Shown here piece after piece: positions 28,713 to 55,772 of a stretch of DNA of 64,000 bases; position 1 is the stretch's first letter, and each line of letters begins with the position of its first letter. Below the pieces are notes generated by a model, which did not search any database, had not been told where the DNA came from, and was given only the letters and a program-made list of their open reading frames with translations. The translations under genes and the position numbers were made by a program. Source of the stretch: an uncultured Thermoleophilia bacterium (GTDB lineage Bacteria > Actinomycetota > Thermoleophilia > UBA2241); assembly GCA_963702475.1 (NCBI GenBank), contig CAVPCT010000006.1, positions 128,001 to 192,000 on the forward strand. Reading direction: 5' to 3'.

Positions 28713-28715
28713 GTC

Positions 28716-30607: not shown

Positions 30608-30616
30608 GAGGGCCGC

Positions 30617-31786: not shown

Positions 31787-31799
31787 AGGGGGTGAAGAG

Positions 31800-36386: not shown

Positions 36387-36434
36387 AGGCGTCGCGGTAC
36401 TCCACCGGGCCGGGCCGTGGCGGGAGGGGGTCCG

Positions 36435-36917
36435 ATGAGGACCCTGCTCCTCGGCATGGGCAATCCGATCCTGACCGACGACGCCATCGGCATCCGCGCG
36501 GCACGCTCCATCAGGGAGAGGCTGGGGCCGGTCCCCGGCCTCTCCTGCGTGGAGGAGTGCTGCACCGGCGGTCTGGAGCTGCTCGACATCGTCGAGGGGT
36601 TCGACCGCCTCATCATCCTGGATTCGATCAAGACCGAGGGGGGCGATCCGGGAGACTGGTATCGCTTCGACGGCACAGCGCTGCGCGACACCATGCACCT
36701 GGACAACGTGCACGACGCCAACTTCGCCACCGCGATGGAGCTCGGCCGCCGCATGGGTGTGCACGTGCCGGCCGACGGGGACATCCACATCCTCGCCGTG
36801 GAGATCAGTGATAACCTCACGTTCTCCGATCGTCTCAGTCCGGCGTTGCAGGCTGCGTTGCCGGACCTCATCGATGAGCTGTACGCAGAGACACGAGCCC
36901 TCCTCGACACCTCCTGA
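36435..36917 (+). CDS. Hydrogenase maturation protease
   Basis: LGMGNPILTDDAIG motif; directly after mvhA. Confidence 0.92.
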   Translation: MRTLLLGMGNPILTDDAIGIRAARSIRERLGPVPGLSCVEECCTGGLELLDIVEGFDRLIILDSIKTEGGDPGDWYRFDGTALRDTMHLDNVHDANFATAMELGRRMGVHVPADGDIHILAVEISDNLTFSDRLSPALQAALPDLIDELYAETRALLDTS

Positions 36918-36921
36918 ACAG

Positions 36922-39447: not shown

Positions 39448-39473
39448 CCTCCCACTCGGATCGGACGCCGCCC

Positions 39474-39722
39474 ATGTGCCTTGCCATCCCCATGCGTATC
39501 CTCTCGGTCGACGGCGACCTGGCCACCATCGCGGTCGAGGGCCTCGAACAGCGCGCCAGCCTGGCGCTCGTGCCTCACGCCGGCGTCGGTGACTGGGTGC
39601 TGGTGCACGCGGGCTACGCGATCAACGTGCTCCCCGAGGACGAGGCTCTCGAGACGCTCGAGCTCATCGCACAACTCGACGATCCCGACCAGCCGGAGCG
39701 CGTGGACGGGCATGAAGGCTGA
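39474..39722 (+). CDS. hypC: Hydrogenase chaperone HypC
   Basis: MCLAIP, VLVHAGYA. Confidence 0.95.
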   Translation: MCLAIPMRILSVDGDLATIAVEGLEQRASLALVPHAGVGDWVLVHAGYAINVLPEDEALETLELIAQLDDPDQPERVDGHEG

Positions 39723-40773: not shown

Positions 40774-41785
40774 AGGCCCCGGCGACCGCATCCTGCTCGG
40801 TCACGGCAGCGGCGGCAAGCTCTATCGCGACCTCGTCCGCGACGTGTTCGTGTCGGCCTTCGCCAACCCCGTGCTCTCGCGGCTCGACGACGCGGCCGTA
40901 CTGGCGCCGTCCGGCCGCGTCGCCTTCACCACCGACAGCCACGTCGTCCGGCCGCTGCGCTTTCCCGGCGGCGACATCGGCCGCCTCGCGGTGGCCGGCA
41001 CGGTGAACGACCTGGCCACGGCGGCGGCGCGGCCGCTGGCGCTGGCCGCCGCCTTCGTCATCGAGGAAGGCTACCTTGTCGCCGACCTGCGCGAGGTGTG
41101 CGCCTCGATGGCGGCCACCGCGGACGAAGCGGGCGTGCCCATCGTCACCGGCGACACCAAGGTGGTCGAGCGCGGCGCCTGCGACGGCCTGTACATCACC
41201 ACGACAGGCGTGGGCGAGGTCGTGGTGCCGCACGACTTGGGAGCCGCGACGGTGCGCGACGGCGACGCCGTCATTCTCAGCGGCGGCATCGGCGACCACG
41301 CCGTGGCGGTGCTCGCCGCGCGCGGCGAGTTCCACTTCCGCACCCCTGTGGAGAGCGACTGCGCCCCCTTGTGGAAGCTCGTGGCCGCCGCCGTGGCGGC
41401 CGCCGGCCCGGGGTTGCGCTTTCTGCGCGACCCCACTCGCGGCGGCCTCACCACCGTGCTCGCCGAGCTCGCCGAGGAGTCGGGTCTGGGCGTCGAGATC
41501 GAGGAGGAGTCCATCCCGGTCGCACCCGGCGTGCGCTCGGTGTGCGACCTGCTGGGCCTCGACCCGCTGACCCTCGCCAACGAGGGCAAGATGGTGCTGG
41601 TGACGGCGGCCGAGACCGCGGACGCGGTGGTCGCCGCCGTGCGCGCCGCGCCGTACGGCGCTCAGGCGCGGCGCATCGGCTTCGTCACCGCCGCGCACGG
41701 AGGCCGCGTGGCGCTCCGCACGGAGTTCGGCACGCGGCGCGTGCTCGACATGCCCGTCGGGGAGCTCCTGCCGCGCATCTGCTGA
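40766..41785 (+). CDS. hypE: Carbamoyl dehydratase HypE
   Basis: HGSGG, GDTKVV, RDPTRGG, C-terminal PRIC. Confidence 0.95.
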   Translation: MTEGPGDRILLGHGSGGKLYRDLVRDVFVSAFANPVLSRLDDAAVLAPSGRVAFTTDSHVVRPLRFPGGDIGRLAVAGTVNDLATAAARPLALAAAFVIEEGYLVADLREVCASMAATADEAGVPIVTGDTKVVERGACDGLYITTTGVGEVVVPHDLGAATVRDGDAVILSGGIGDHAVAVLAARGEFHFRTPVESDCAPLWKLVAAAVAAAGPGLRFLRDPTRGGLTTVLAELAEESGLGVEIEEESIPVAPGVRSVCDLLGLDPLTLANEGKMVLVTAAETADAVVAAVRAAPYGAQARRIGFVTAAHGGRVALRTEFGTRRVLDMPVGELLPRIC

Positions 41786-41886
41786 CGCCGCAGGCGCGCG
41801 CGCCGCGGCGACGGGCGGAGGCCTCGTGCGCGGGCCGCGTCCGCGGCGGCAAGCCGGACCATCCGGACACAGAGAAAGGGGACCCG

Positions 41887-42240
41887 GTGCACGAATTGGG
41901 CATCACCCAGGGAATCGTCGACCGCGCCCGTGAGGCTGCCGTCGCGAACGGCGCGAAAAAGGTCACCGACGTGTACATCCTCATGACGCCTGCCGCCGAC
42001 TTCACTGAGGACTCGATCGCCATGTTCTTCGAGATGATGACGCAGGACGACGACCTCTTCCGGGGCGCCAGGCTGCACGTGGAGCACATGCCGGTTCCGG
42101 CGGTGTGCCTGGACTGCACTCACGAGTTCAGCGCTGACACGACCGAGCCGGTGTGTGCCAAGTGCGGGTCGCAGAACGTGCGTTTCGACCCCGAGGCCCC
42201 GATGATCCAGCTCACGGACATCGGCGTCGAGGAGGAGTGA
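41887..42240 (+). CDS. hypA: Nickel metallochaperone HypA
   Basis: (M)HELGI, CLDC...CAKC. Confidence 0.9.
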   Translation: MHELGITQGIVDRAREAAVANGAKKVTDVYILMTPAADFTEDSIAMFFEMMTQDDDLFRGARLHVEHMPVPAVCLDCTHEFSADTTEPVCAKCGSQNVRFDPEAPMIQLTDIGVEEE

Positions 42241-42282: not shown

Positions 42283-43161
42283 TCAGGGCGCAGGCGGCGG
42301 AGCGGCGCTCAGCGGAGCCCTTCGCCGCCTGATCTCGCGGTCGACGATCGCCCCCGCCAGCAGGGCGATGTTCAGGATCCACGCCCACACGAGGAAGACG
42401 ATCGCGGTGGCGAGGGCGCCGTACACGCGGTCGTACGACGCCCAGTGCGTCAGGTAGTACCGGAAGACCCCGGTGATGCCGACCCACAGCACGAGCGTGG
42501 TGACGGCGCCGCCGAGCAGCGAGAGCAGGCCCTTGCGCGGCCGCGAGGGCGCGAAGCGGAACAGCAGGCCGACCATCAGCAGGCCCAGCGCGAACAGCAC
42601 CGGCCACTTCGCCCACGACCAGAGGTGCAGCGGCCCGTTGCCGATGCCCGTCGCGTCGGCGATCGCCGATCCCACGGGCCCGACCAGCGTGAGTGCCACA
42701 GCCGTCAGGGTGAGCAGCACCAGCAGGCCGACGGCGAGTGGGATGCGTACCGGCAGGTCCCTCCAGATCGGCCGCATGGACTTCGCTTCGTTGATGACGT
42801 CGGCGGCCCACATGAACGCGCCGACGAAGCTCGAGGCGGCCCACAGCGACAGGAGAGCGCCGAGGACCAGCGCGAGGGTGGACGAGTGGGACCGCACGAT
42901 GCCGTCGACGGCGCTGGTGAAGAACTGCACCGCCCAGGTGGCGCCGAGCTCGCCGATCGCGTCGATGAGGTCGTGCAGGGTGTCCGCCGGAAGGCCGGCC
43001 ACGCCCAGCAGGGCCACCATGACCAGGAACGCCGGGAACAGCGACAGCACCGTGTAGTACGTGAGCGCGGCCGCCAGCCTGGGCACGTTGAGCGCGAGGA
43101 TGGGGGCGATCAGCGCCCATGCCCTGCGCGCCAGAGCGGCGGCGCCACCGCGTTGCTCCAT
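42283..43161 (-). CDS. YihY/virulence factor BrkB family membrane protein
   Basis: AAALTYYTVLSLFP, YDRVYGAL; multiple TM helices. Confidence 0.88.
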   Translation of the reverse strand: MEQRGGAAALARRAWALIAPILALNVPRLAAALTYYTVLSLFPAFLVMVALLGVAGLPADTLHDLIDAIGELGATWAVQFFTSAVDGIVRSHSSTLALVLGALLSLWAASSFVGAFMWAADVINEAKSMRPIWRDLPVRIPLAVGLLVLLTLTAVALTLVGPVGSAIADATGIGNGPLHLWSWAKWPVLFALGLLMVGLLFRFAPSRPRKGLLSLLGGAVTTLVLWVGITGVFRYYLTHWASYDRVYGALATAIVFLVWAWILNIALLAGAIVDREIRRRRAPLSAAPPPAP

Positions 43162-43566: not shown

Positions 43567-44226
43567 TCAGCCGTCGCGCCCGTCTTCGGCGGCGGGCTGC
43601 GCCCCGCTCACCGCCGCCAGGCGTTCCTTGAACCCCGTCTCCTCGAAGATCGTCTGCACTTCCTTCACCACGTGCTCGGGCGGGAAGAGGTCGCCGAGCC
43701 CGAGCTCCGCACGCACCTCCAGCAGGTGGTCCATGTAGGTGGTCCACTTCTCCCCCCAGGCCTCCCCTATCGCGGGGAACATGAGGTGCGGGTCGCCGCC
43801 CATGCCCTTCTCGTAGAAGTTGCCGCACCACTCCGCGAACATCTCCACGTGGCGCCGGCCGCAGCCGTTCTCCACCTGCATGCCGCGGATCACCTGGTTG
43901 ATCACGGCGACGCTGTTGTGGCGCGGGCAGCGGCTCTGGCACGTGTAGCAGTAGTAGCAGTACCAGAGGGTGTCGTCCTCGAGCAGCGTGACGTCGCCGT
44001 CGAGGGCGCGGCGCGCGGTCTCCCGCGGTGAGTACTCGGTGAAGCGCGCTGCCGGGCAGCCTGAGGTGCAGATGCCGCACTGCACGCAGCTCTGGAAGCC
44101 GTCCCTGTGGTCGTGCATGCGCGGGTCCTCGAGGATGCGCCGGACGAGCTCCGGGTCCCGCCGCGGCGTCGCCGCGAACGTGTCGTCGGCGATGTGGGCG
44201 TAGGGGTTGTCCTTGGCGTCAGGCAT
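43567..44226 (-). CDS. hdrC: Heterodisulfide reductase subunit C
   Basis: CVQCGICTSGCP, WYCYYCYTCQSRCP. Confidence 0.88.
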   Translation of the reverse strand: MPDAKDNPYAHIADDTFAATPRRDPELVRRILEDPRMHDHRDGFQSCVQCGICTSGCPAARFTEYSPRETARRALDGDVTLLEDDTLWYCYYCYTCQSRCPRHNSVAVINQVIRGMQVENGCGRRHVEMFAEWCGNFYEKGMGGDPHLMFPAIGEAWGEKWTTYMDHLLEVRAELGLGDLFPPEHVVKEVQTIFEETGFKERLAAVSGAQPAAEDGRDG

Positions 44227-45409
44227 GAGCGGGCTCCTCGGGGGCGCTGGGCACGGCCCGGAAGAACTCGGGCCAGAAGTGGACGGGGACGGTGAGCTTG
44301 AGCTCGCGGGCCGCCGACCGCAGGTTGTCGCGGCACAGGACGCAGGTGGTCACGACGGGCGCGCGCTGGTCCTCGGCGAAGCCGAGCAGGCGCGCGCTGC
44401 TCTTGGTGGCGCCCCGGTACATGCCGCCCAGGGCGCCACAGCACCCGCTGTGCATGGTGGGGTAGTCGACGACGAGGTCGGCGCCGGACAGTTCGGCGGC
44501 GTCGCCGAGCGCCCCGAGCGCCGCATCCCTGTCTGCGAGGCAGCCGACGTACGGCACGAACCCTGCGCCGGCCGCGCGCAGGGCGATGCCCGGCGTGCGC
44601 GCGGCCCGCTCGGTGAGCGCGTCCCAGAGCGGGACGGCGTCCACGCCGGCCTCGGCGAGGCCGGCGTCGCAGGCCGGGCAGGCGGTGAAGACGCGCTCCG
44701 CGCTCGCGAAGAGACTGCCCACCGAGCCGCGGCTGGGGTGGCCGCAGCAGCCGGCGTCCGCCTCCTCCACGAGGCGGACGCCGAAGCCGGCGGCCACCTC
44801 GTGCACCAGGGCGTGCAGCTCGCGGTCCTGCGGCAGCGAGCAGCCGGAGTAGAAGGGCAGTGCGGCGGCGCCGGCCGGGAGGTCGGCGGCCGGCGCCGCG
44901 CACTTCTTGCCGCCGGGCAGCAGCTGCCGCGCGAGCTTCACGCCCAGCTCGGCCGCGCCCAGCTTGTCTTTGGGCAGGTACCCTCTGACCGCCATGGCCA
45001 CGCCGAACCGACCGTTGTCGATGCGTGGCCGCTTGCCCAGGTGGCCGGTGGCGACATCTGCGGCGGTGCGCTCGGCGCAGCGGATCCGGCCGCCGTGCTC
45101 GCGCTCCAGCCGCCGCAGCCTGTGCAGCACGCCGGCGACGTCGATGTCCATGCGGCACACCGTCGTGCACGTGCCGCACTCGGTGCAGCGCCACAGGTCG
45201 TCGCTCCTCAGCACCGCGTCGATCTCGCCGGCGAGGATGAGCCGGACGATCCGCCGCGGCCCCCGGTACAGCTCACGCCCGCTCGGGCAGCTCGACGTGC
45301 AGGTCCCGCACTGGTAGCAGATGGCGCACTCCTGCGCGAGCCGGGCGAACTCGTCCCTCACCGCCTGCGGGTACTCCCTCGCGTCAGCGACCGCGGCCAC
45401 AGGGCTCAC
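44219..45409 (-). CDS. Compact HdrD-like protein (2x[4Fe-4S] plus two CCG domains)
   Basis: CYQCGTCTSSCP, WRCTECGTCTTVC; YSGC/GCCG/TACPAC and YVGC/GCCG/TTCVLC. Confidence 0.8.
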   Translation of the reverse strand: MSPVAAVADAREYPQAVRDEFARLAQECAICYQCGTCTSSCPSGRELYRGPRRIVRLILAGEIDAVLRSDDLWRCTECGTCTTVCRMDIDVAGVLHRLRRLEREHGGRIRCAERTAADVATGHLGKRPRIDNGRFGVAMAVRGYLPKDKLGAAELGVKLARQLLPGGKKCAAPAADLPAGAAALPFYSGCSLPQDRELHALVHEVAAGFGVRLVEEADAGCCGHPSRGSVGSLFASAERVFTACPACDAGLAEAGVDAVPLWDALTERAARTPGIALRAAGAGFVPYVGCLADRDAALGALGDAAELSGADLVVDYPTMHSGCCGALGGMYRGATKSSARLLGFAEDQRAPVVTTCVLCRDNLRSAARELKLTVPVHFWPEFFRAVPSAPEEPAHA

Positions 45410-47918
45410 CTCCTCCGCAAGCGGCGGGGGCGCCCGCGGCGACGCCGATCAGCTCCATCTCCTGCGCGACGAGCTCGTCCGAGAGCTCGTCGCCTGCTGC
45501 CCTCGCGGTGAACATCCGGATGCGCCGGCCTACGCTCGTGCGGTCCACGGCGCACAGGTGCCAGAGCTCAAGCGGGAGCGGCGTGCCCGCGTCGGCGAGC
45601 ACCTCCTCGGCGATCGTGACCTGCTGCACGGCGCTGGCGTCGCCGCTGCGGTACTGGCAGCGGCCTTCAGCGCAGCCGGCGAGGAACACGCCGGCTGCGC
45701 CCAGACGGGCCGCCTCCACGATGTGCATCGCGCTGATCCGCCCCAGGCAGGGCAACTCGATGAGCCGCACGCTCTCGGGATACTTGTCCCGGCGCTGGCC
45801 GGCGAGGCCGATGGCGGCGCCGGCGCACTCTCTGCAGTAGAACCCGACGACCGGCTTATCGACGCCCTGCATCATGGTCGCGATGCGACCGCACAGGGCG
45901 TCGTCGCTCAGGTTGTGGGCGATCGCGACCTCGGGGCAGTTGGCCGCGCAGATGCCGCAGGCGCGGCAGCTCTGGGGGTCGATAACGGCCAGCTTGCCGT
46001 CATCCTTCACCTCGTCAGGCCGCGCCTCCCACGCCGGCCGCTCGACCAGCGTGATCGCGCCGAACGGGCACATGGCGGCGCAGGTGTCGCAGCCCACGCA
46101 GTGGGCGGCATCCACGCGGGACGGGGCCGTGCCCCGGCGTCCCGCCGAGGTGAGGAAGTTGTGGATCTCGCTGGCGACCGCCGAGGCCTCGGTGTTGACC
46201 TCGATGAGCGCCTTGGGCCCGGCGGCGGAGCCGCAGACGAAGATGCCCTCGCCGCTGGTCTCGGTGGCCCTGTTCTTGCGGTCCAGGATCTCCACGAAGC
46301 CGTCCTTGTCGCGGTCGACGCCGAGCGTCTGGCTCAGCACGTCGGTCCCATCGGCCGGGACCATGCCGGTGCTGAGGACCACGAGGTCCGGACGCAGCAC
46401 CCGCTTGCGCGCCGCGGTGACGTCCTCGACCTCGATGACGGGCCGACCGGCGGCGTCCACCTGCACCTCGGGCGGCGTGCCGCGCAGAAACTCCACGCCG
46501 GCGCGCCGCGCGTCCAGGAACCAGTTCTCGTACCCGACGCCCGCGGTGCGCATCTCCAGGTAGCAGATGGTCACCTTCATGGCCGGGAACAGGGTCTTCA
46601 GGCGGATCGCGTGCTTGAGCGCGATCATGCAGCACAGACGCGAGCAGTGCGGCAGGTGACGCTGGTCGCGCGAGCCGGCGCACTGGATCATCACGAGCTC
46701 CTCGACCGGCATGCACCCGAGCGCGGCCTGCGCCGCCCAGTCGTCCATCATCTCGGCGAGCTCGACCTGGGTGACGACGCCGTCCTGCCCGTAGCCGAGG
46801 TAGTCGTAGTACTCGTGCGGCGCGGGCTCGCACCCCGTGGCGGTGAGGACCGCGCCGGCCTTCACCGTCGTCCGCCGCGGCGACTGCCCGAAGTCGATGG
46901 CCTCCACCGGGCACGCGCCTGCGCAGGCGCCACAGAACGTGCAGGTCTCGAGGTCGACGGTGCGGATCACGCGGCCGTCGTAGAACTCCGTGAAGACGGC
47001 CTTGCGTCCGGGCTCAGCGGAATCGACCTCGCACACCGTCTCGCAGGTGCCGCAATTGATGCAGGCGTCGGTGACGATGTTCGGGAGCGTGCGGATGCTC
47101 ACCTGGAAGTCGCCGGGGTGGCCGGTGACCGACTCGACCGTGGAACGGCGGTGCACCAACAGGTTCGGGTGGTCGATGGCGACGTTGCGGTGGAAGCACT
47201 TGCGGGTGCCGGCCTGGGCGTCTGTGGTCGGCAGGCACTGGCCGCAGTCGTTGGTGGGGAACACGGTGCCGATGCGGGCGGCACGGCCGCCGAGGAACGG
47301 CCGCCGCTCGACGAGCTCGACGTGATGTCCCATCTGGGCGAGCTCTACGGCAGCTTGCGTGCCGGCCACGCCGCCGCCAATGACGACGACGGTGTCGCGG
47401 CGCTCGGCGTAACTCATCGTGTCGGCCGGGGCGTCCGGGTAGGCGATAGACGAGTCGACGATGCGCGCTGCCTTGTCGGTGACGGCCACGACGTCGTCGC
47501 CGTGCACCCAGCTGCAGCCCTCGCGGATGTCGGCGATCTCGAGCTGCAGGCCGCGCGTCGTGAGCTTCTGGAAGCGGCGCGCGGCGAAGTCGGCGGAGCA
47601 GCCGGCGAAGACGAGCTGGCGGCCGGGCCTGGCGCCGGTGTGGCCGGGGACTCCGGCTCCGCCCCTGGCCCCGGTCTGGTCGTCAGCCCCGGCGTCCATC
47701 AGCTCGAGCATGCGGGCCTGGCCGACGCGGCTGCACCAGTGGGTGCCGCGGAGCACGTCGGCGTGCAGCGAGGCGTGCCGCTCGAGCCGCTCGAAGTCGA
47801 TGTTGGTCATCGTGCCGGCGCACTCGCAGAGCAGGACGAGCGGGCGGCCGGCGTCGTCGCCGGCAGCCAGGCCGAGGACGGTGCCGGGCGCGGCGCTTCT
47901 ACCTTTCGTGCCACTCAT
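45384..47918 (-). CDS. hdrA: HdrA-MvhD fusion protein
   Basis: LCEC, REGCSWVH, GGGVAG, FPTNDCGQC, CSRLCCMIALK, four ferredoxin motifs, C-terminal MvhD domain (FYCRECA, LPCLG, GCAEGRCQY). Confidence 0.88.
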   Translation of the reverse strand: MSGTKGRSAAPGTVLGLAAGDDAGRPLVLLCECAGTMTNIDFERLERHASLHADVLRGTHWCSRVGQARMLELMDAGADDQTGARGGAGVPGHTGARPGRQLVFAGCSADFAARRFQKLTTRGLQLEIADIREGCSWVHGDDVVAVTDKAARIVDSSIAYPDAPADTMSYAERRDTVVVIGGGVAGTQAAVELAQMGHHVELVERRPFLGGRAARIGTVFPTNDCGQCLPTTDAQAGTRKCFHRNVAIDHPNLLVHRRSTVESVTGHPGDFQVSIRTLPNIVTDACINCGTCETVCEVDSAEPGRKAVFTEFYDGRVIRTVDLETCTFCGACAGACPVEAIDFGQSPRRTTVKAGAVLTATGCEPAPHEYYDYLGYGQDGVVTQVELAEMMDDWAAQAALGCMPVEELVMIQCAGSRDQRHLPHCSRLCCMIALKHAIRLKTLFPAMKVTICYLEMRTAGVGYENWFLDARRAGVEFLRGTPPEVQVDAAGRPVIEVEDVTAARKRVLRPDLVVLSTGMVPADGTDVLSQTLGVDRDKDGFVEILDRKNRATETSGEGIFVCGSAAGPKALIEVNTEASAVASEIHNFLTSAGRRGTAPSRVDAAHCVGCDTCAAMCPFGAITLVERPAWEARPDEVKDDGKLAVIDPQSCRACGICAANCPEVAIAHNLSDDALCGRIATMMQGVDKPVVGFYCRECAGAAIGLAGQRRDKYPESVRLIELPCLGRISAMHIVEAARLGAAGVFLAGCAEGRCQYRSGDASAVQQVTIAEEVLADAGTPLPLELWHLCAVDRTSVGRRIRMFTARAAGDELSDELVAQEMELIGVAAGAPAACGGGEPCGRGR

Positions 47919-48364
47919 GCGCTCGCCCCCTCGGCCGCGACGGCGGGCGGGGCCGATCCGCCCGCGGCGTCCGCCCGCGGCGGCCGCGCCTCGATGGCGC
48001 CGGCCGGGCAGGTGCGGGCGCAGGTGCCGCAGCCGAGGCACCTCGCGTCGTCGTACACGATGGTGCGGAACACGGTGACGCGCTCCGGCACCTCGACGGG
48101 GTCGTCGGGCTCGTGGCGCATCAGGACGCGCAAGGCGGCGCCCAGCTCGCCGCGGCGGCTACCCTCCGGCGCCTCGAGGAGCTGGCGCACGTCGAAGAAG
48201 TCGCCACGCTCGGAGGCGCCGCTCGGGCAGTTCTTGGCACAGGCGCCGCAGCCTACGCAGAGCTCTTCGTGGCGGACGATGTCGCAGCCGACGCCGGCCG
48301 TGCTCCCCAGGTGCCCGCCGGGCACGCGGCCGAGGATCTCGCGCCCTCGCTGCGTGAGCGGCAT
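47915..48364 (-). CDS. 2x[4Fe-4S] ferredoxin with a long insert between the cluster motifs
   Basis: CVGCGACAKNCP and CLGCGTCARTCP; translationally coupled on both sides. Confidence 0.85.
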   Translation of the reverse strand: MPLTQRGREILGRVPGGHLGSTAGVGCDIVRHEELCVGCGACAKNCPSGASERGDFFDVRQLLEAPEGSRRGELGAALRVLMRHEPDDPVEVPERVTVFRTIVYDDARCLGCGTCARTCPAGAIEARPPRADAAGGSAPPAVAAEGASA

Positions 48365-48822
48365 CAGGCAGCCCCCCTCGTCGCGGCGAGCAGGTCCGGT
48401 GATGGCGACGCGTCGCCGGTCGATCGCGGCAGGGGCGGCAGCCCGCCGATCACCCGGTCCATTTCCCGCACGGCGGCCACGAACTTGGGCGGCTCGCCTG
48501 CGCTCATCGTGAACATGCGACAGCGCTCGGGCTCCACGCCGACGCTCTTCAGCAGGCGCTGCACGAAGGCCACGCGGTCGACGGCGTTGAAGTTGCCCTC
48601 GCGGTAGTGACACTGGCCCAGCAGGCAGCCTGCGACCATGACGCCGTCGGCACACTCCGCGAGCGCCTTGAGCAGGTGCAGCGGGCTGACGCGACCGGTG
48701 CACGGCATCAGCACGAGGCGCACCGTCGGCGGCAGCGGCGTGCGCGCGTTGGCGCTCGCGTCGGCCGCCGCGTAGGCGCACTCCCGGCAGCAGAAGGCGA
48801 CGATGGTGCGGTCCTCACCCAT
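48364..48822 (-). CDS. mvhD: MvhD/FlpD [2Fe-2S] subunit
   Basis: FCCRECAY, MPCTGR, GCLLGQCHY, MSAGE. Confidence 0.9.
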   Translation of the reverse strand: MGEDRTIVAFCCRECAYAAADASANARTPLPPTVRLVLMPCTGRVSPLHLLKALAECADGVMVAGCLLGQCHYREGNFNAVDRVAFVQRLLKSVGVEPERCRMFTMSAGEPPKFVAAVREMDRVIGGLPPLPRSTGDASPSPDLLAATRGAA

Positions 48823-51800
48823 CAGACGGTCGCCTCCGCCAACACCTCGGCGTCGCTGAACCCGCCGAGCTGCATCGCCCCCGTGGGGCACTCGGCGGCG
48901 CAGATGCCGCAGCCGCGGCAGATGTTGGGGTCGACGGCCGAGTGCGCGTCGGCTCCCACCGTGATGGTGATCGCCGTCTGCGGGCAGGCGGTCTCGCACA
49001 CACCGCAGGCGACGCAGACGTCCACGTCGCTCGAGGCCACCTGGGCAGGCGTCATCGCGAAGCCCGTGCTGAGCATGCTGATCGCACGGGCGGCCGCGGC
49101 CTTCGCCTGGGCGATGGACTCGGGGATCGTCTTGGGACCCTGGGCGGTGCCGCACAGGAACATGCCCGTCCGCTGCGTGTCGACGGGAGCCAGCTTGGGG
49201 TGGAACTCGCGGATGAAGCCGGCGGCCGCGGTCTGGACGCCGGCGACGCGGGCGATGTCCTGCGTCCCCTTGGAGCCCTCGAGGCCGGCGGAGAGCACGA
49301 CGAGGTCGTACTGCTCCTCGCTCTTGGTGCCGGTCATCGTGTTCTCCATGCGCACGGTGAGGCTGCCGTCGAGTTCCTCGAGGATCTCGCCAATGCGGCC
49401 GCGCACGTAGCGAACGCCGCGCTCCTGCACGAGGCGGTAGTACTCCTCGTGCGCCTTGCCCGGCGTGCGCATGTCCGTGTAGCCGATGGTGACCTCGGCG
49501 TCCGGGTAGTGCTGCTTGATCAGCGAGCTGTGCAGCGTGGCGAACAGGCAGCAGATGGCCGAGCAGTGCTCGTTGCCGCTGCTGGTGCAGTCGCGCGAAC
49601 CGACGCACTGGAGCATGAAGATGCGCTTGGGCGTCTCGCCGTCCGAGGGGCGCTTGAGCTCGCCCGCGGTCGGCCCGGAGGCCGAGAGCAGACGGGCGAG
49701 CTGGCTCTGCGTGAGCACGTTCTTGAAGCGGCCGTAGCCGAGCGGCAGCTTGCGCGTGGCGTCGAACTCCTGATGGCCGGTGGCCAGGATGATGGCGCCG
49801 ACGGTGAGGTCTTCGTCCCAGGGCTGCTGGTCGAAGTCGATGGCGTCGGCGGGGCACGCCGCGATGCACGACTTGCAGTCGGAGCACACGGCGCAGTCGA
49901 GGCAGCGCTCGGCCTCGGCGCGGACGTCCTCCTCGCTGAAGCCGAGGCGCACCTCCTCCCAGCCCTTGCGCCGGGTGACGCCGTCCAGGGTCTTCATGAT
50001 GCGCCGTGCCTGTGGCTCGAGGGGCTCGAGCTCGGTATGCGGGATCTTGACCTTGTCGGCCTCGCTGTCCCACACCGGGAGGAGCTGCTCGCCGCGCAGG
50101 AAGTTGTGGATGGCGCGGGCGCCACGGCGGCCGGCGGCGATCGCCTCGATGGCCGTCCAGGGGCCCATGGCGGCCGCGTCGCCGCCGGCGAACACGCCGG
50201 TGCGGCCGGTCATCATCGTGTCGGTGTCCACCTGGATCTGGCCGCGCTCCACGGAGACGTCGTCGGCGCCTGCGAGGAAGTCGTCCACGATGGCCTGGCC
50301 GACGGCGAAGATCACCGTGTCGGCCTCGAGCTCGACGAAGTCGCCCTCGACGGGGACGGGCGGGCGCCAGCCGCGCTCATTGGGCTCGCCCAGGGTGCAG
50401 CGCTGGAACTTGACGCCGGTCGCCGTGCCGCCCGCGCCGAGGATCTCGACGGGCATGAGCGAGTACTCGACGGTGACCTGCTCCTCCTTGCCCTCCTCGA
50501 TCTCCTCGGACGAGGCCGGCGCCGTGCGCTCGTCCTCGATGCAGGCGAGGGTGACCTCGTCGGCGCCGCAGCGGAACGCCGTGCGGCCGGCGTCGTAGGC
50601 CACATCGCCGCCGCCGACCACGACCACGCGCTTGCCGGTCTTCGGGTCCTCGCCGAGCGCCTGCGCGCGCAGGAACTCGACGGCGAGCACGACGCCGTGC
50701 TGATCGAGGCCGTCGATCGGCAGGTCCTTGCTCTGGTGCAGGCCGGTCGCGAGCAAGACGGCCTTGTAGCCGTCGGCGAACAGCGAGTTGACGGTGAAGT
50801 CCGCGCCGCAGCGCACTCCGGTCTTGAGCTCGACGCCGAGGGCCGTGATGCGGTCGATCTCGCCCTGCAGCGCCGGGCGCGGCAGGCGGTACTCGGGGAT
50901 GCCGACACGCAGCATGCCGCCGGCGACCGGAAGAGCCTCGAAGACGGTCGCCTTGTAGCCGAACTGCGCCAGCTCGCGGGCGGCGGTGAGCCCCGCGGGG
51001 CCGCCGCCGACGATCGCGACCGGCTCGTCGTAGAACACGGGCAGCGGCGCGGGCGGCTCCGCCGGCGCGCCGTGGTCGGCGACGAACCGCTTGATGCCGG
51101 CGATGGCGATGGGCTCGTCCACGTTGCCGCGCGTGCACTCGGTCTCGCACACGTGCGTGCAGATGCGGCCGCACACGCTCGGGAAGGGGTTCGGCTCGCC
51201 GGCGACCCGGTAGGCCTCCTCGTAGCGGCCCTTGGCCACCAGCGCCACGTAGCCGTGAGCCGAGGTGTGCACCGGGCAGGTGGTCTTGCACGGGCTCCAG
51301 CCCTTGCGGTCGACGGCGAACGTCGCCGGGACGGCGTTGGCGAACGGCCTGGAGATGGCCGTGCGCTCGCTGACGCCGAAGTCGTACTCGTTGGGATAGG
51401 TCACCGGACATACGGCGGCGCACTCGCCGCAGCCGACGCACTTCTCGTTCACGTAGCGTGCGCGGTGCCGAACGGTCACGTTGAACTCGCCGGGCGGTCC
51501 GGTGACCGAGGTGACGTCCGACAGCGCGTGGATGTGGATGCGGCTGTTGGTGGCCGCGCCGGTCAGGCGGGGAGCGAGGCTGCACATGGCGCAGTCCTCG
51601 GTCGGGAAGGTCTTGCTCAGCCGGGACATGTAGCCGCCGATGCTCTGCTGACGCTCGACGAGATGGACCTCGATGCCTGCGGCGGCGAGCTCCTCGGCGG
51701 CGGAGATGCCGGCGATGCCGCCGCCAACGACCAGGACCGAGCGGTTGAGGAACGTGCGCCGGCGTGGCAGGTCGCTCATGTGCTGCAGGCGGGCGACGGC

Positions 51801-52163
51801 GCCCTCGACGATCTTCTTCGCCTTGGCCTGCGCCCGCTCGGGCTCGTGCGCGTGCACGTAGGAGCAGCCCTCGCGGATGTTGCCGAAGGCCACGGAGTTC
51901 TCGCCCAGCCTGAGCTCGCGAGCGATGCGCTCGAAGGTGGGTCCCTGGAAGCGCGGCGAGCACGAGGCGATGACGAAGTGGTCGAGGCCGCGCTCTTCAA
52001 CAGCCTTCTCGATCATCGCGCGGCCTTCGGTGCCACACATGAACTGGTTGACGTTGACCTCGACGACCCCGTCGAGGGAACGCACGTGGTCGGCCAGCGG
52101 CTCGAGGTCCACGACGCCGCTGATGTTGCCGCCACACTCGCAGAGGAAGACCCCGGCCCTCAT
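48822..52163 (-). CDS. hdrA: HdrL-type large HdrA with an inserted GltD/NfnB-like NAD(P)H-binding module
   Basis: HdrA N- and C-terminal parts flank PCKTTCP...CGRICTHVCE...GGGPAG...GGMLRVGIP...GGGDVA...FAGGD...EAERCLDC. Confidence 0.9.
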   Translation of the reverse strand: MRAGVFLCECGGNISGVVDLEPLADHVRSLDGVVEVNVNQFMCGTEGRAMIEKAVEERGLDHFVIASCSPRFQGPTFERIARELRLGENSVAFGNIREGCSYVHAHEPERAQAKAKKIVEGAVARLQHMSDLPRRRTFLNRSVLVVGGGIAGISAAEELAAAGIEVHLVERQQSIGGYMSRLSKTFPTEDCAMCSLAPRLTGAATNSRIHIHALSDVTSVTGPPGEFNVTVRHRARYVNEKCVGCGECAAVCPVTYPNEYDFGVSERTAISRPFANAVPATFAVDRKGWSPCKTTCPVHTSAHGYVALVAKGRYEEAYRVAGEPNPFPSVCGRICTHVCETECTRGNVDEPIAIAGIKRFVADHGAPAEPPAPLPVFYDEPVAIVGGGPAGLTAARELAQFGYKATVFEALPVAGGMLRVGIPEYRLPRPALQGEIDRITALGVELKTGVRCGADFTVNSLFADGYKAVLLATGLHQSKDLPIDGLDQHGVVLAVEFLRAQALGEDPKTGKRVVVVGGGDVAYDAGRTAFRCGADEVTLACIEDERTAPASSEEIEEGKEEQVTVEYSLMPVEILGAGGTATGVKFQRCTLGEPNERGWRPPVPVEGDFVELEADTVIFAVGQAIVDDFLAGADDVSVERGQIQVDTDTMMTGRTGVFAGGDAAAMGPWTAIEAIAAGRRGARAIHNFLRGEQLLPVWDSEADKVKIPHTELEPLEPQARRIMKTLDGVTRRKGWEEVRLGFSEEDVRAEAERCLDCAVCSDCKSCIAACPADAIDFDQQPWDEDLTVGAIILATGHQEFDATRKLPLGYGRFKNVLTQSQLARLLSASGPTAGELKRPSDGETPKRIFMLQCVGSRDCTSSGNEHCSAICCLFATLHSSLIKQHYPDAEVTIGYTDMRTPGKAHEEYYRLVQERGVRYVRGRIGEILEELDGSLTVRMENTMTGTKSEEQYDLVVLSAGLEGSKGTQDIARVAGVQTAAAGFIREFHPKLAPVDTQRTGMFLCGTAQGPKTIPESIAQAKAAAARAISMLSTGFAMTPAQVASSDVDVCVACGVCETACPQTAITITVGADAHSAVDPNICRGCGICAAECPTGAMQLGGFSDAEVLAEATV

Positions 52164-53134
52164 CGCGCACCTCCGGTCGTGGCGGGCCGGCGGGCGCCGA
52201 TGCGCTCCAGGAAGGGCTCGACATCCTGGGAGTGCGTCTGGACCCCGACCACCGTCTCGGGGTCGGCGCCGAGCGCCAGCGCGAGGAGTTGCTGCACGTG
52301 CAGGTGGATGAAGGGGAACTCCTCGCCGGTGCTTTCAGAGATGATGTCGCTGTAGCGGTCGAACTGGACGTGGCAGTTGGGGCACATGTGCACGAGGACG
52401 TCGACGTTCTCCTCGTGCAGCCGGTGCAGCTTCTTCTGCGTCACCCCGACCGAGATCGACGGGTTGACGAACCGGTTGCGAAAGCCGGCTCCGCAGTGCG
52501 TCTGCTTCTCGTTGTACGCGCCGGTGCACTCCACGCCTGCGGGGATCAGCATCTCCTCGGGCACCATGAAGTTCTCGTTGTTGCCGAGCGTCTCGTCCGG
52601 GAAGACTTTGCAGTAGTGGCAGGCTGGGTGCGTCGCGACCTTGATACCGTCGAGCCGCCGCCGCACCAGCTCGGGAACGCTCCGGTGCGCCCCCCAGAGG
52701 ATCTCCAGGGTGTGCTTGTGCTGCACGGTCCCGGCCACGCGGTCGTCGTACTCGCGCCCGACCTTGGCCAGCACCGCGTTGGTGTCGGCTCGGTACCCGG
52801 GCACGCCGAGGATGTTGCGCGCCTTCTTGTTGATGGCGTAGCAGGTGGAGCACAGGTAGGTCATGACCGGGTGCCCGTCGTCGACCACCACGCAGGCGTT
52901 GCGCGCGGCGATGCCCACCGTCGTCTGGATGGGCATGAGGTCGGAGTAGTAGCCCAGACCGGTGCAGCACGTCTGCTCTGGGTTGACGGTGTACTCGATG
53001 CCGAAGCGCTCGAAGAGCCACTTCGTGGACGACTCCACCCCCGGGTACTCGGCGGAGACGAGGCAGCTGCGGAACAACGTCACGCCTCCGTCGACGCGGG
53101 GCACGTCGGGAGTGCTCGTGTAGCGTTTCGTCAT
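52160..53134 (-). CDS. hdrB: Heterodisulfide reductase subunit B
   Basis: FRSC, QTCCTG, LCSTC, HPACHYC, HCGAG, HMCPNC, QFD. Confidence 0.88.
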   Translation of the reverse strand: MTKRYTSTPDVPRVDGGVTLFRSCLVSAEYPGVESSTKWLFERFGIEYTVNPEQTCCTGLGYYSDLMPIQTTVGIAARNACVVVDDGHPVMTYLCSTCYAINKKARNILGVPGYRADTNAVLAKVGREYDDRVAGTVQHKHTLEILWGAHRSVPELVRRRLDGIKVATHPACHYCKVFPDETLGNNENFMVPEEMLIPAGVECTGAYNEKQTHCGAGFRNRFVNPSISVGVTQKKLHRLHEENVDVLVHMCPNCHVQFDRYSDIISESTGEEFPFIHLHVQQLLALALGADPETVVGVQTHSQDVEPFLERIGARRPATTGGAR

Positions 53135-53769: not shown

Positions 53770-54795
53770 ATGCGCCTACTCGACGCCTGCGCCCGCCGTC
53801 CCGTCGACGCGACGCCCGTGTGGCTCATGCGCCAGGCGGGGCGCTACCTCCCTGAGTACCGTGCCATCCGCGAGAAGCTCTCCTTCGTCGAGATGTGCAT
53901 GCGCCCCGATGTGGCCGCCGAGGTCACCCTTCAGCCGCTGCGCCGCTTCGACCTGGACGCCGCCATCATATTCGCCGACATCCTGCTGCCCCTGGAGCCC
54001 ATGGGCATCGGCTTCCACTTCACGCCCGAGGACGGGCCGGTCATCGAGAAGCCGGTGCGCTCCGCCGCCGACCTCGAGGGCGTGCACACCATCGACGCGG
54101 CCTCCGACCTGCAGTACGTCATGGAGTCCCTTCGCCTGGTGCGGCACGAGCTCGACGGCCGCGTGCCGCTCATAGGGTTCTCCGGAGCCCCGTTCACCCT
54201 GGCCAGCTACATCGTCGAGGGTGGCCACTCGCGCAACTACACGCACGTCAAGAAGCTCATGTACGAGGACCCGACCACGTTCGACAGGCTGATGACCCTC
54301 ATCTCGGATGTCGTCGTGCACTACCTCCTGGCGCAGATCGCCGCCGGGGCCCAGGTCGTGCAGCTGTTCGACAGCTGGGTCGGCTGGCTGGGCCCCTACG
54401 ACTACGAGCATCTGGTGTTGCCGCACGTGCATCGCGTCGTGGAGCAGGTCAAGGGCAAGGGGGCGCCGGTCATCTACTTCGGCAACGGCGCCTCCGGCAT
54501 GCTGCATCACGTCGCCACCGTGCCCAGCGACGTCATCGGTGTGGACTGGCGCATCGACATCGACCGCGCCTGGGAGCAGCTCGGCGACGTGGCCGTGCAG
54601 GGCAACCTGGACCCCATCACCCTGCTGGGTCCGCCGAGTGCCATCGAGGAGCGCGTGGCCGACATCATCGCGCGGATCGGCGGGCGTCCCGGCCACATCT
54701 TCAATCTGGGGCACGGCCTGGTGCCGCAGACGCCGCCGGACAATGTCAAGTACGTCATCGACGCGGTGCACCGCCTCAGCGCCGCGGCCGGGTGA
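53770..54795 (+). CDS. hemE: Uroporphyrinogen decarboxylase
   Basis: WLMRQAGRYLPEY, IFADIL, QLFDSW, QGNLDP, NLGHG. Confidence 0.96.
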   Translation: MRLLDACARRPVDATPVWLMRQAGRYLPEYRAIREKLSFVEMCMRPDVAAEVTLQPLRRFDLDAAIIFADILLPLEPMGIGFHFTPEDGPVIEKPVRSAADLEGVHTIDAASDLQYVMESLRLVRHELDGRVPLIGFSGAPFTLASYIVEGGHSRNYTHVKKLMYEDPTTFDRLMTLISDVVVHYLLAQIAAGAQVVQLFDSWVGWLGPYDYEHLVLPHVHRVVEQVKGKGAPVIYFGNGASGMLHHVATVPSDVIGVDWRIDIDRAWEQLGDVAVQGNLDPITLLGPPSAIEERVADIIARIGGRPGHIFNLGHGLVPQTPPDNVKYVIDAVHRLSAAAG

Positions 54796-54806
54796 GGCGG
54801 CGCGGC

Positions 54807-55772
54807 ATGGCGCGCAGCTCGTCCGCCGTCGATGTCGCTCTGCTCGCCTACGGCGGGCCGGAGCAGGCCGACCAGATCCTGCCGTTCCTGCGACGGCTGA
54901 TGGGCCGCGAGCCCGATGCGCGTACCGTCCAGGTCGTGCAGGAGCGGTACGCGCTCATCGGCGGCGCCTCGCCGCTGCCGGCGATCACGGCGCGTCAGGC
55001 GGCCGCCTTGCAGCAGCACCTCAGTGGGGAGTTGCCGTTCTCCGTGCGCGTCCGCCACGGCTTCCTCTACACCGAGCCCACCATCGCCGACTGCCTTGAC
55101 CAGCTCATCGGCCACGAGATCGTCGCCGTCCCCATGAGCCCGTTCGCCTCGCGGCTCACCAGCGGCAGGTACCGCGCCGCGATCGACGCGGCCGAGCAGC
55201 AGTCCGGCCGCGGCCGCGCCATCCCGCTGCTCGAGGGCTGGTATGCCGACACCGACTTCGTCCAGGCCATCTCCCGCAACGCCGCCCGGGAGCTCGACTG
55301 CTGCGACAACAGCGAGTGGGTGGTCCTGTTCACGGCGCACAACGTGCCGGCCGAGACGATCTGGGAGGGCGACCCGTACGCGGAGCAACTGCAGCAGACC
55401 ATCGCGCAGCTTATCCCCGCGCTGGTGCCGGGCGACTGGAAGTTCGGGTTTCAGAGCACCGGGCGCGGCGGCGGTGAGTGGATGGAACCGGAGGTCGCCG
55501 ACGTAGTCCGCGAGATCGCCGGAGAGGGCTGGAAGAAAGTCCTCGTGGTGCCGGTCGGCTTCGTGAGCGACAACGTGGAGACGCTGTACGACCTCGACAT
55601 CCTGCTCAGGGGCGAGATCGAGGCGCTCGGCATGGAGTACCGCCGTTCCGACCCGCCCAACGACTCGCCGCAGTTCATCAAGGCGCTGGCCGACGTCGTC
55701 GTACAGCACTTGGCCAACAGGCCCGGGCCGCATCAGACGCGGTCGCCGCGCGGCCCGCACGGTCACCCGTGA
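54807..55772 (+). CDS. hemH: (Copro)porphyrin ferrochelatase
   Basis: LAYGGP, IGGASPL, FTAH, GDPY, FQS, GFVSDNVETLYDLD. Confidence 0.92.
   Translation: MARSSSAVDVALLAYGGPEQADQILPFLRRLMGREPDARTVQVVQERYALIGGASPLPAITARQAAALQQHLSGELPFSVRVRHGFLYTEPTIADCLDQLIGHEIVAVPMSPFASRLTSGRYRAAIDAAEQQSGRGRAIPLLEGWYADTDFVQAISRNAARELDCCDNSEWVVLFTAHNVPAETIWEGDPYAEQLQQTIAQLIPALVPGDWKFGFQSTGRGGGEWMEPEVADVVREIAGEGWKKVLVVPVGFVSDNVETLYDLDILLRGEIEALGMEYRRSDPPNDSPQFIKALADVVVQHLANRPGPHQTRSPRGPHGHP

Follow-up and report, generated by a model that had tools for sequence, protein, structure and literature searches.

The minus strand of the 64,000-nucleotide stretch analyzed here (the window), from an uncultured high-GC actinobacterium, carries seven overlapping ORFs between positions 43567 and 53134 in the order hdrB-hdrL-mvhD-fdx-hdrA::mvhD-hdrD-like-hdrC. 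On balance, and with some reservation, we favor the reading that they encode an NADPH-fed, probably electron-bifurcating disulfide reductase of the HdrL/HdrABC kind, with HdrB and HdrC derived from archaea. The operon is widespread rather than rare, being found in four named phyla. It has no purified representative, and its parts list is already in print for Syntrophobacter and Desulfobacterium, where it is uncharacterised.

The preliminary description had proposed seven overlapping Hdr genes in this interval, and ORF calling, Pfam and NCBIfam bear this out, with both databases backing all seven assignments. With the chosen start codons, the junctions overlap by 4, 1, 1, 4, 26 and 8 nt in operon order; the GTG of the hdrD-like gene is the least certain start. 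The first gene, hdrB (52160-53134), codes for the catalytic CCG-domain subunit of 324 aa (Pfam CCG domain, 59.9 bits). It is followed by hdrL (48822-52163), encoding an HdrA of 1113 aa into which an NAD(P)H block of GltD/NfnB type is inserted (Pfam and NCBIfam), and by mvhD (48364-48822), a free-standing [2Fe-2S] electron-transfer subunit of 152 aa that scores 139.7 bits for FlpD and 122.6 bits for the VhuD model. Next, fdx (47915-48364) encodes a ferredoxin-like protein of 149 aa with two Fer4 sites, that is, two [4Fe-4S] motifs, found by Pfam and NCBIfam, and hdrA::mvhD (45384-47918) a second HdrA paralogue of 844 aa with a FlpD (MvhD) domain fused at the C-terminus, which reaches 451 bits against the HdrA2 model NF040770 (cut-off 1100). 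The hdrD-like product (44219-45409, 396 aa) combines an HdrC-like N-terminus holding two [4Fe-4S] sites with two five-cysteine CCG-type motifs (..CCGHPS.. and ..CCGALGG..), which were read directly from the translation, the Pfam CCG match being sub-threshold at 17.5 bits. Finally, hdrC (43567-44226) encodes 219 aa with two [4Fe-4S] sites and a C-terminal half typical of Methanobacteria-type HdrC. As had also been stated, no hydrogenase, fdh, flx or lipoate-protein genes are among the seven; Pfam and NCBIfam found no Flx-type genes in the operon or its neighbors, so the locus lacks the FlxABCD-HdrABC arrangement.

The proposed NAD(P)H link is supported by the architecture of HdrL. Its HdrA core (residues 2-287 and 757-1108) matches solved HdrA with 556-570 bits and is interrupted at about 288-756 by a GltD/NfnB-like insert predicted to bind two [4Fe-4S] clusters, FAD and NAD(P)H. 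Residues 290-692 align to NfnB/GltD-type chains with 257-361 bits, and HdrL matches Pfam Fer4_20 and Pyr_redox_2. This block lies within the inserted-ferredoxin domain, which is the layout of type III HdrA. The nucleotide-binding motif is GGGDVA, shared by 55 of the 63 clade HdrL proteins scored, all of which have GxGxxA; this pattern is linked to NADP, and GxGxxG to NAD, in PMC12054007. At the flavin site, the clade HdrL proteins have Leu at the Lys409 position (57/64) and Ala at the Glu356 position (54/64), whereas both equivalents are reported for all archaeal type III proteins. In HdrA::MvhD, the Lys409 position of the bifurcating FAD site is still Lys (58/59), and the Glu356 position is Ala in 47/59. 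Judged by the two residues used as a criterion in the literature, neither of these flavin sites is a textbook bifurcating one.

The signatures of HdrB and HdrC had been tentatively described as closer to the methanogen type, and the family models agree, with scores below the cut-offs. The best NCBIfam model for HdrB is NF041780, 'ferredoxin:CoB-CoM heterodisulfide reductase HdrB', with 341.3 bits over model positions 5-303 of 304 (equivalog cut-off 450; the Methanobrevibacter curvatus protein scores 505.5 bits). For HdrC it is NF041890, 'hdrC_Methbact', with 196.5 bits over positions 11-190 of 192 (cut-off 270). The older CoB_CoM_SS models gave lower scores, 158 and 74 bits, as did solved chains (HdrB 110-138 bits, HdrC 48-70 bits). 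HdrB aligns over its full length to PDB 5ODC_B and 8RVU_b. All the motifs quoted earlier were found in the translations, both those of HdrB (LFRSCLVSAEYPGVESST, QTCCTGLG, ACHYCK and HCGAGFR) and those of HdrC (CPAAR..YSPR and CYYCYTC..CP..NSV..INQ). The family is defined by two CCG motifs of five cysteines each (Cx31-39CCx35-36CxxC). In HdrB, the first is complete (C24, C56C57, C95xxC98), while the second consists of five Cys and one His: the CCG triplet begins with His instead of Cys (HCGAGFR), and ACHYCK contributes an additional Cys. Since this second cluster site is altered from Cys to His, catalysis may differ. The relocated cysteine (CHYCK together with TCG or HCG) is present in 12/12 Methanobacteriales-group rows inspected and in 68 of 70 bacterial loci, the search pattern leaving the other two unparsed. 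The residues contacting CoM and CoB in PDB 5ODR are Arg14, Gly46, Gly198, Arg201 and Arg240, as listed in PMC13261682. On alignment, HdrB has the same residue at Gly46, Arg201 and Arg240, but Glu at Arg14 and Phe at Gly198, and the five states are identical in the bacterial clade and its Methanobacteriales sister group.

In the HdrB tree (59 rows), whose nested topology presupposes that the root lies outside the subfamily, the subfamily is supported at 100/99 and the bacterial clade within it at 100/100. This clade joins the Methanobacteriales group and one Helarchaeota row at 96/96. Among the 20 other rows of the subfamily, the 10 usable organism names are all archaeal (Methanobacteriales, Asgard and Methanomassiliicoccales). 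Constraining those 20 rows to one clade, a group chosen post hoc from the tree, cost 22.5 lnL (p-AU 0.026), and the stem of the bacterial clade is long, at 1.17 changes per site. The tree that the preliminary description had proposed thus nests the bacterial HdrB proteins beside Methanobacteriales in an otherwise archaeal-named subfamily, outside ordinary bacterial HdrB, and the methanogen-type reading of the catalytic subunits is supported.

The nearest named relatives are the HdrCBA proteins of Methanobacteriales (NF041890, NF041780 and NF041891; e.g., Methanobrevibacter curvatus, locus L084), with 45% identity for HdrB and 32% over 187 aa for M. curvatus HdrC. Their HdrB shares CHYCK with an x-C-G second motif, EYPG at the Arg14 position, GFRxR and QFDR, and their HdrA is likewise fused to MvhD, but at only 28% identity. 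None of the three equivalog cut-offs is reached by the window's proteins, and whereas the Methanobacteriales operon consists of three genes next to comDE, the bacterial one adds HdrL, an extra MvhD, ferredoxin and HdrD. With the solved MvhADG-HdrABC complexes (5ODC, 8RVU), the operon shares the HdrA-HdrC-HdrB electron path, the non-cubane cluster motifs and MvhD, and HdrA2 of Methanosarcina acetivorans HdrA2B2C2 is an HdrA::MvhD fusion like the fifth gene here, as reported in PMC5296606. Unlike these systems, the operon has no hydrogenase or F420 module and encodes two unequal HdrA paralogues; besides the low HdrB scores above, solved HdrA gave 214-274 bits against HdrA::MvhD.

No purified complex matches the operon. 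In published composition, as given in PMC5947623, it resembles the Syntrophobacter type: genes for HdrA, HdrB, HdrC and MvhD lie together with those for an FeS electron-transfer protein and a large HdrL that includes a glutamate-synthase-like portion for NAD(P)H binding, and the hydrogenase catalytic subunit is absent. The Syntrophobacter fumaroxidans HdrABC/HdrL locus (Sfum_0819-0824) and the HdrL loci of Desulfobacterium autotrophicum are described as detected in proteomes, with no purification in those accounts (PMC5947623, PMC2702500). The operon differs in its extra HdrD-like gene, in the fusion of a second MvhD to HdrA, and in the placement of hdrB at one end and hdrC at the other; DsrC, which was put forward there as the substrate, is missing here. 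Type III HdrA proteins (HdrA-NfnB fusions) of ANME-1 and Bathyarchaeota, presented as uncharacterised in PMC9012536 and PMC12054007, share the GltD/NfnB-type block in the inserted-ferredoxin domain and likewise occur alongside additional HdrA paralogues and HdrD-like genes. According to those papers, the archaeal sequences have Lys409, Glu356 and GxGxxG (NAD), whereas HdrL here has Leu, Ala and GxGxxA.

In the mechanism proposed, the seven genes would form one soluble iron-sulfur flavoprotein complex. NADPH would be oxidized at the GltD/NfnB-like insert of HdrL, and electrons would pass through a chain of [4Fe-4S] and [2Fe-2S] clusters in HdrL, free MvhD and the ferredoxin-like subunit to HdrA::MvhD, whose FAD is the likeliest site for splitting or merging electron pairs. 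One branch would then lead to low-potential ferredoxin, and a disulfide-type, possibly persulfide-type, substrate would be reduced. The HdrB/HdrC pair would descend from the archaeal 'ferredoxin:CoB-CoM' Hdr lineage through horizontal transfer into bacteria, with later spread among soil and peat phyla.

A convergent operon on the plus strand (28670-42240), unmentioned in the preliminary description, ends 1.3 kb from hdrC. It contains qmoA/qmoC/qmoB-like genes (by NCBIfam, two HdrA-like and one QmoC-like), followed by mvhD, mvhG, mvhA and hyp genes. The Mvh-type hydrogenase is not a conserved neighbor, being nonadjacent in all four congeners checked: the MvhA homologue lies 1.08 Mb away in G134, about 389 kb away in G038, on another contig in G008, and on contigs other than that of hdrB in G171. 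In operon-bearing G166, no MvhA homologue was found. MvhAG is therefore neither among the Hdr genes nor conserved beside them, as it is in MvhADG-HdrABC.

Four other explanations were weighed against the bifurcating disulfide reductase. A minor share of the probability goes to a module that feeds electrons into a terminal reductase encoded elsewhere, as HdrABC-MvhD does for MetFV in Moorella, with HdrBC and HdrD acting only as a relay. According to PMC5861303, the Moorella thermoacetica MetFV-HdrABC-MvhD complex, which shares HdrB, HdrC and MvhD with the operon, is the only purified one whose HdrA holds two FAD and oxidizes NADH, and its acceptor is methylene-tetrahydrofolate, reached via MetFV. 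The altered second site of HdrB also fits a relay, as does the lack of a thiol-carrier gene in or next to the operon. However, metF and metV are absent from the operon, and the Moorella-type enzyme has its own HdrL(1518 aa)-MvhD-MetV-MetF cluster in this genome, on a different contig (C5), so that the seven genes do not encode it. In addition, AcsB was found in just 3 of the 26 further genomes that carry the operon, no partner gene conserved across phyla was found beside the operon, and the pocket arginines of HdrB are retained. It is unlikely, too, that the operon supplies the Hdr part of an H2-dependent Mvh-Hdr pairing with the VhuA/VhuG-like [NiFe] hydrogenase (34926-36386), which lies with its hyp genes 8-10 kb from hdrC on the opposite strand. 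The two MvhD modules would suit such a role, and a Hox-type hydrogenase, annotated as such in L062, and hypA are found directly upstream of hdrB, with matching hits in six loci from Chloroflexota, Dormibacterota and genomes labelled 'Actinomycetes'. Yet that enzyme is of a different class, the hydrogenase operon in the window has an mvhD (~33521-33955) and HdrA-like and QmoC-like partners of its own, and MvhA is scattered among the congeners as described above.

Still less probable is a sulfur-oxidizing system, either sHdr-like or linked to DsrC, whose substrate would be sulfur bound to a protein (LbpA, TusA or DsrC), even though PMC5947623 describes bacterial Hdr-like complexes as commonly proposed to act on DsrC. 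The DsrC/TusE family TIGR03342 was not found in the genome, which is 93.8% complete, and was found in just 5 of the 26 further genomes with the operon; DsrA is likewise missing from the genome and AprA gave no match above the cut-off. The sHdr systems are defined by the order hdrC1B1A-hyp-hdrC2B2 with lipoate-binding protein genes. The gene order here differs, and no tusA, dsrE or lipoate-protein genes were found in or beside the operon or its flanks. It is very improbable that the operon encodes a genuine bacterial CoM-S-S-CoB reductase. The best HdrB family model, the five pocket states shared with Methanobacteriales and a ComA homologue in the genome would fit it, but HdrB and HdrC score under the equivalog cut-offs, McrA was not found in this genome, and ComDE (sulfopyruvate decarboxylase) had no match above the cut-off. 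Moreover, the ComA homologue sits in a TauE-ComA-phosphatase unit, which points toward sulfolactate and not coenzyme M, and such homologues also occur in the Bacillus and Corynebacterium controls.

Conservation of the operon was examined in 79 bacterial loci, taken from the best 80 of 580 confirmed relatives. All seven genes are in the same order in 53 of them (46 in Actinomycetota, three each in Dormibacterota and Chloroflexota, and one in Planctomycetota), 19 are cut by a contig end, and 7 have hdrB-hdrC only. Within the class its distribution is patchy, the operon being present in 29/35 genomes of the window's own family and in 0/165 from the 11 other families sampled. No candidate substrate gene was found linked to the seven-gene form; a PALP enzyme is encoded beside the hdrB-hdrC-only form in five loci and 1.5 kb upstream of one seven-gene locus (L041).

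Translation of the minus strand at 43567-53134 reproduced exactly the seven open reading frames of the preliminary description, and Pfam and NCBIfam matches were consistent with every name given to them. The genes are hdrB (52160-53134, 324 aa), hdrL (48822-52163, 1113 aa), mvhD (48364-48822, 152 aa), a ferredoxin-like gene (47915-48364, 149 aa), hdrA::mvhD (45384-47918, 844 aa), an hdrD-like gene (44219-45409, 396 aa) and hdrC (43567-44226, 219 aa), all on the minus strand. With the start codons chosen, the junctions from hdrB to hdrC overlap by 4, 1, 1, 4, 26 and 8 nt. All peptide strings reported earlier were found in the translations. The G+C content of the window is 65-75%, and a scan of the sequence was uninformative, with 0 promoter-like and 2 terminator-like sites vs. 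2.2 expected. Short metatranscriptome contigs about 90% identical, from three runs in three studies, span the operon and are sparser in both flanks; they come from relatives, may reflect DNA carry-over and cannot show transcription, and they were left out of the evidence.

A word-indexed search returned 496 HdrB relatives at E ≤ 0.001, the best 120 being 68-90% identical, and 580 of 596 pattern matches in GTDB (one genome per species) were confirmed as relatives. Synteny was compared for the best 80 of these 580, namely 79 bacterial loci (60-92% identity to the window HdrB) and one from Methanobrevibacter curvatus (45%). The full seven genes in the same order were present at 53 of the 79 bacterial loci, distributed among Actinomycetota (46), Dormibacterota (3), Chloroflexota (3) and Planctomycetota (1); the Actinomycetota loci include 22 from Thermoleophilia, 13 from 'Actinomycetes' and 7 from Acidimicrobiia. 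As for the rest, 19 run into a contig end and 7 carry hdrB-hdrC alone. Within the class, 29 of 35 further genomes from the window's family yielded HdrB, against 0 of 165 sampled from 11 other families. This patchiness, together with the high identity across phyla, points to horizontal spread of the operon. Two incomplete loci of the 79 have a delta-proteobacterial label, and such labels of metagenome-assembled genomes may be wrong. Since the proteins of one of them (L073) are 85-95% identical to the window's (HdrB 91%, HdrL 95%), its contig may be mis-binned; the other (L051), at 52-70% identity, looks like a true separate lineage.

The two-gene form (L055, L057, L060, L063, L066, L068 and L070), with HdrB 66-68% identical, is known here from Dormibacterota, Chloroflexota, Gaiellaceae and a single 'Actinomycetota' MAG, in some cases within a genome that also has the seven-gene operon. 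At five of these loci (L060, L063, L066, L068 and L070), the opposite strand carries a PALP-family, cysteine-synthase-like gene 68-160 bp downstream, and a PALP enzyme is also found 1.5 kb upstream of one seven-gene locus (L041).

The affinity of HdrB and HdrC was studied with family models and solved structures, and that of HdrB also with trees. The top NCBIfam model for HdrB was NF041780, 'ferredoxin:CoB-CoM heterodisulfide reductase HdrB' (341 bits vs. a cut-off of 450), with TIGR03288 at 158 bits, and for HdrC it was NF041890, 'hdrC_Methbact' (196.5 bits vs. a cut-off of 270). Solved methanogen chains aligned at 110-138 bits for HdrB and at 48-70 bits for HdrC, the latter over the N-terminal ferredoxin part only. 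In an exhaustive search of representatives, where the entire ≥50% HdrB cluster counts as one, the next full-length relatives were 41%, 39%, 37% and 35% identical. Their clusters are named for Methanosphaera, a Halobacteriota archaeon and Methanomassiliicoccales, and the 37% relative (P0126) is nearest to Helarchaeota and Promethearchaeota proteins.

The preliminary description had likened HdrB to the methanogen type subject to a tree. That tree was run, and the bacterial clade (the window HdrB and its close bacterial relatives) nests with the Methanobacteriales group (96/96). A quick tree of 95 rows (76 of 148 representative hits, 270-345 aa, plus 19 locus rows) agrees with a careful tree of 59 rows, an author-chosen subsample in which many rows are without names. 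In the latter, a subfamily (100/99) unites a Methanomassiliicoccales group, an Asgard group and the 96/96 clade, in which 12 Methanobacteriales-group rows and one Helarchaeota row are joined by the bacterial clade (100/100) on a stem of 1.17 changes per site. The 20 subfamily rows outside the bacterial clade comprise 10 with archaeal names, 9 unnamed and one with its name cut off ('Candidatus De...'). Constraining these 20 rows to one group, which was defined after the tree was seen, cost 22.5 log-likelihood units (p-AU 0.026), and the conclusion holds only with the root placed among the 27 outgroup rows.

A relocated cysteine, as an independent rare character, agrees with the HdrB tree. CHYCK is present in all 70 near-full-length bacterial-clade loci, and x-His-Cys-Gly replaces CCG in 68 of them, the other 2 being unparsed by the pattern. 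In the Methanobacteriales group, CHYCK is combined with Thr-Cys-Gly in 11 rows and with His-Cys-Gly in 1. The remaining HdrB rows inspected keep CCG and have no extra cysteine, except for one Helarchaeota row (Thr-Cys-Gly) and the unnamed row P0207, where a CCG was looked for and not found. Tree position and relocated cysteine alike link HdrBC to an archaeal lineage, and the catalytic HdrB-HdrC pair would descend from the archaeal ferredoxin:heterodisulfide reductase line, as judged from trees of HdrB. The Methanobrevibacter curvatus paralogue belongs to an hdrC-hdrB-hdrA::mvhD operon (L084:241-6451) that scores above all three NCBIfam equivalog cut-offs and adjoins comD and comE, the sulfopyruvate decarboxylase genes of coenzyme M synthesis. 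Identity to the window's proteins is 32% for its HdrC (over 187 aa, C-terminal half included) and 28% for its HdrA::MvhD.

According to the accessible text of PMC13261682, in the solved structure 5ODR the CoM sulfonate is contacted by the backbone NH of Gly46 and Gly198, the CoB carboxylate by Arg201 and the CoB phosphate by Arg14 and Arg240. In the alignment to solved HdrB, the window protein has Gly, Phe, Arg, Glu and Arg at the Gly46, Gly198, Arg201, Arg14 and Arg240 positions. The Methanobacteriales sister group is identical at all five (EYPG, GFRxR and QFDR), and QFDR is present in 65 of 70 bacterial-clade loci.

Of the two HdrA paralogues in the operon, HdrL matches solved HdrA over residues 2-287 and 757-1108 (556-570 bits) and NfnB/GltD-type chains over residues 290-692. 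This architecture is the same as described in the accessible parts of three papers for HdrL of Desulfobacterium (PMC2702500), HdrA-NfnB of ANME-1 (PMC9012536) and type III HdrA (PMC12054007). The dinucleotide motif of the window HdrL is GGGDVA, conforming to GxGxxA, which a rule quoted in the available text of PMC12054007 links to NADP; GxGxxA occurs in 63 of 63 scored clade HdrL proteins, as GGGDVA in 55. At the flavin site, the Lys409 position is Leu in 57 of 64 clade HdrL proteins and Lys in 58 of 59 HdrA::MvhD proteins, and the Glu356 position is Ala in 54 of 64 and 47 of 59, respectively. The DCxxC motif, the source of Cys197 for the partner's N-terminal cluster in the solved HdrA dimer, is retained in both paralogues, so an HdrL/HdrA::MvhD heterodimer would be possible.

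Past the cofactor content, we infer every step of the mechanism. NADPH would enter at the insert of HdrL, which Fe-S centres of HdrL, MvhD and the ferredoxin-like subunit may bridge to HdrA::MvhD, the better candidate for the electron-splitting flavin. HdrC-HdrB with the HdrD-like subunit would reduce a disulfide-type acceptor, and low-potential electrons would pass to ferredoxin, the reverse direction being also possible. The proposal follows a scheme proposed for NADH-dependent bacterial Hdr complexes and for HdrA2B2C2 homologues in the accessible text of PMC5296606, and is also compatible with the purified two-FAD HdrA complex of Moorella as far as the available part of PMC5861303 describes it. 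The most specific reading is that of an NADPH-driven heterodisulfide reductase of archaeal ferredoxin:CoB-CoM Hdr origin, in at least four named soil/peat phyla, with an anionic thiol pair (a coenzyme M/B analogue) as bifurcation sink. It is highly improbable in this full form; if true, non-methanogenic bacteria would use an anionic low-molecular-weight thiol pair as redox sink in flavin-based electron bifurcation.

Other substrates and partners were weighed on gene content in the window's own genome (G000) and 26 other operon-bearing genomes. DsrC was rejected as substrate, since DsrC/TusE gave 0 matches in G000 (93.8% complete) and is present in 5 of the 26 others; in G000, DsrA was not found and no AprA scored above the cut-off. 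A link to the Wood-Ljungdahl pathway was rejected because AcsB, present in G000, was found in only 3 of the 26. Coenzyme M synthesis was likewise discarded: McrA was not found in G000, no sulfopyruvate decarboxylase scored above the cut-off, and only ComA (phosphosulfolactate synthase, 304 bits) is present, between a TauE/SafE exporter and a histidine phosphatase on one strand (G000:C4:480438-483113; L086:7438-10113). Beside them lies a 303-aa ORF, presumably a LysR-type regulator as judged from its N-terminus only, and the unit looks like one for sulfolactate synthesis and export rather than coenzyme M synthesis. Mycothiol or another phylum-specific thiol would be improbable as the substrate, since proteins ≥66% identical are found in several phyla. 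No neighbour of the operon conserved across phyla was found in 72 loci, only lineage-specific synteny. For example, hemE, identified through similarity only, lies divergently upstream in the hem region (53770-57439, plus strand), next to two ORFs whose translations we read as ferrochelatase-like and HemY-like. Since hemE adjoins the operon in 34 Actinomycetota loci and not in other phyla, this looks like inherited synteny with no functional link.

The operon itself contains no formate dehydrogenase, Flx or lipoate-protein gene and, as previously described, no hydrogenase gene, yet a hydrogenase operon sits 8-10 kb off. Downstream of hdrC, after a 405-bp gap, a YihY/BrkB-family membrane gene (42283-43161) is followed by the convergent plus-strand hydrogenase operon (28670-42240), with genes for a QmoA-like HdrA homologue, a QmoC-like membrane protein, a QmoB-like second HdrA homologue, MvhD (about 33521-33955), VhuG/MvhG-like and VhuA/MvhA-like [NiFe] subunits, a maturation protease and hypF to hypA. 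The pairing of a group-3c-type hydrogenase and a Qmo-like membrane module would point to an H2:quinone or a bifurcating connection, and G000:C4:336174-342654 holds another Qmo-like cluster. As a partner, the hydrogenase was rejected because its operon has its own mvhD and the adjacency is not conserved: in operon-bearing genomes of the window's genus, the MvhA homologue is 1.08 Mb (G134) or 389 kb (G038) from hdrB or on a different contig (G008, G171), and none was found in operon-bearing G166, of another genus. The hydrogenase genes upstream of hdrB in Chloroflexota and Dormibacterota loci are of HoxU/HoxY/HoxH type with hypA, as read by Pfam at L062, where they directly precede hdrB on the same strand (HoxU-like protein of 235 aa, small and large subunits of 177 and 474 aa). 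L058, L064, L067, L072 and L080 have MvhG/MvhA-type matches and ORFs sized as in L062; at all six loci the genes lie at about positions 6200-9800. Four of these six loci are labelled Chloroflexota or Dormibacterota, and L072 'Actinomycetes'.

Hdr-like complexes rank among the commonest predicted electron-bifurcating enzymes of anaerobic and soil bacteria and, to our knowledge, none beyond those of methanogens and Moorella has a proven substrate. The present operon exemplifies them in a clean, self-contained and highly conserved form and occurs in abundant uncultured lineages of soil and peat (Thermoleophilia, Acidimicrobiia, Dormibacterota and Chloroflexota). The putative archaeal descent of HdrBC, the HdrA flavin asymmetry and the inconsistency of DsrC, coenzyme M, the Wood-Ljungdahl pathway and hydrogenases as partners narrow the substrate search and give a target for reconstitution, and the cysteine shift at the second non-cubane cluster offers cluster chemistry a natural variant of interest. 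The parts list is already published for clusters of Syntrophobacter (Sfum_0819-0824) and Desulfobacterium, according to the available text of PMC5947623 and PMC2702500, the former cluster being abundant with sulfate and never purified (PMC5947623). Literature searches for the operon in Thermoleophilia, Acidimicrobiia, Dormibacterota, Gaiellales and Solirubrobacter returned nothing relevant, and those on HdrL, HdrA diversity, HdrB chemistry and Moorella returned no paper describing it in soil lineages; comparable bacterial homologues may already be listed in the supplements of PMC5296606 (Fig. S1), PMC9012536 and PMC12054007 (Hdr tables). The present analysis contributes the HdrB tree with the cysteine relocation, the comparison of pocket residues, the asymmetry of the flavin sites, the family-restricted distribution and the negative partner tests.

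The 4.3-Mb genome G000 carries at least five Hdr-type loci. A Moorella-type cluster at G000:C5:560776-567533 (L085:5776-12533) encodes an HdrL-like protein (1518 aa), MvhD, MetV (DUF5981) and MetF (MTHFR), after which come genes for a flavodoxin-like protein and a B12-binding corrinoid protein. With AcsB/CdhC at G000:C5:445925-446389, this Thermoleophilia genome thus carries Wood-Ljungdahl-type genes. A further HdrA-MvhD-HdrB-like cluster lies on the window's contig, outside the window, at G000:C6:13447-16861, its HdrB-like protein scoring 68.6 bits to NF041780.
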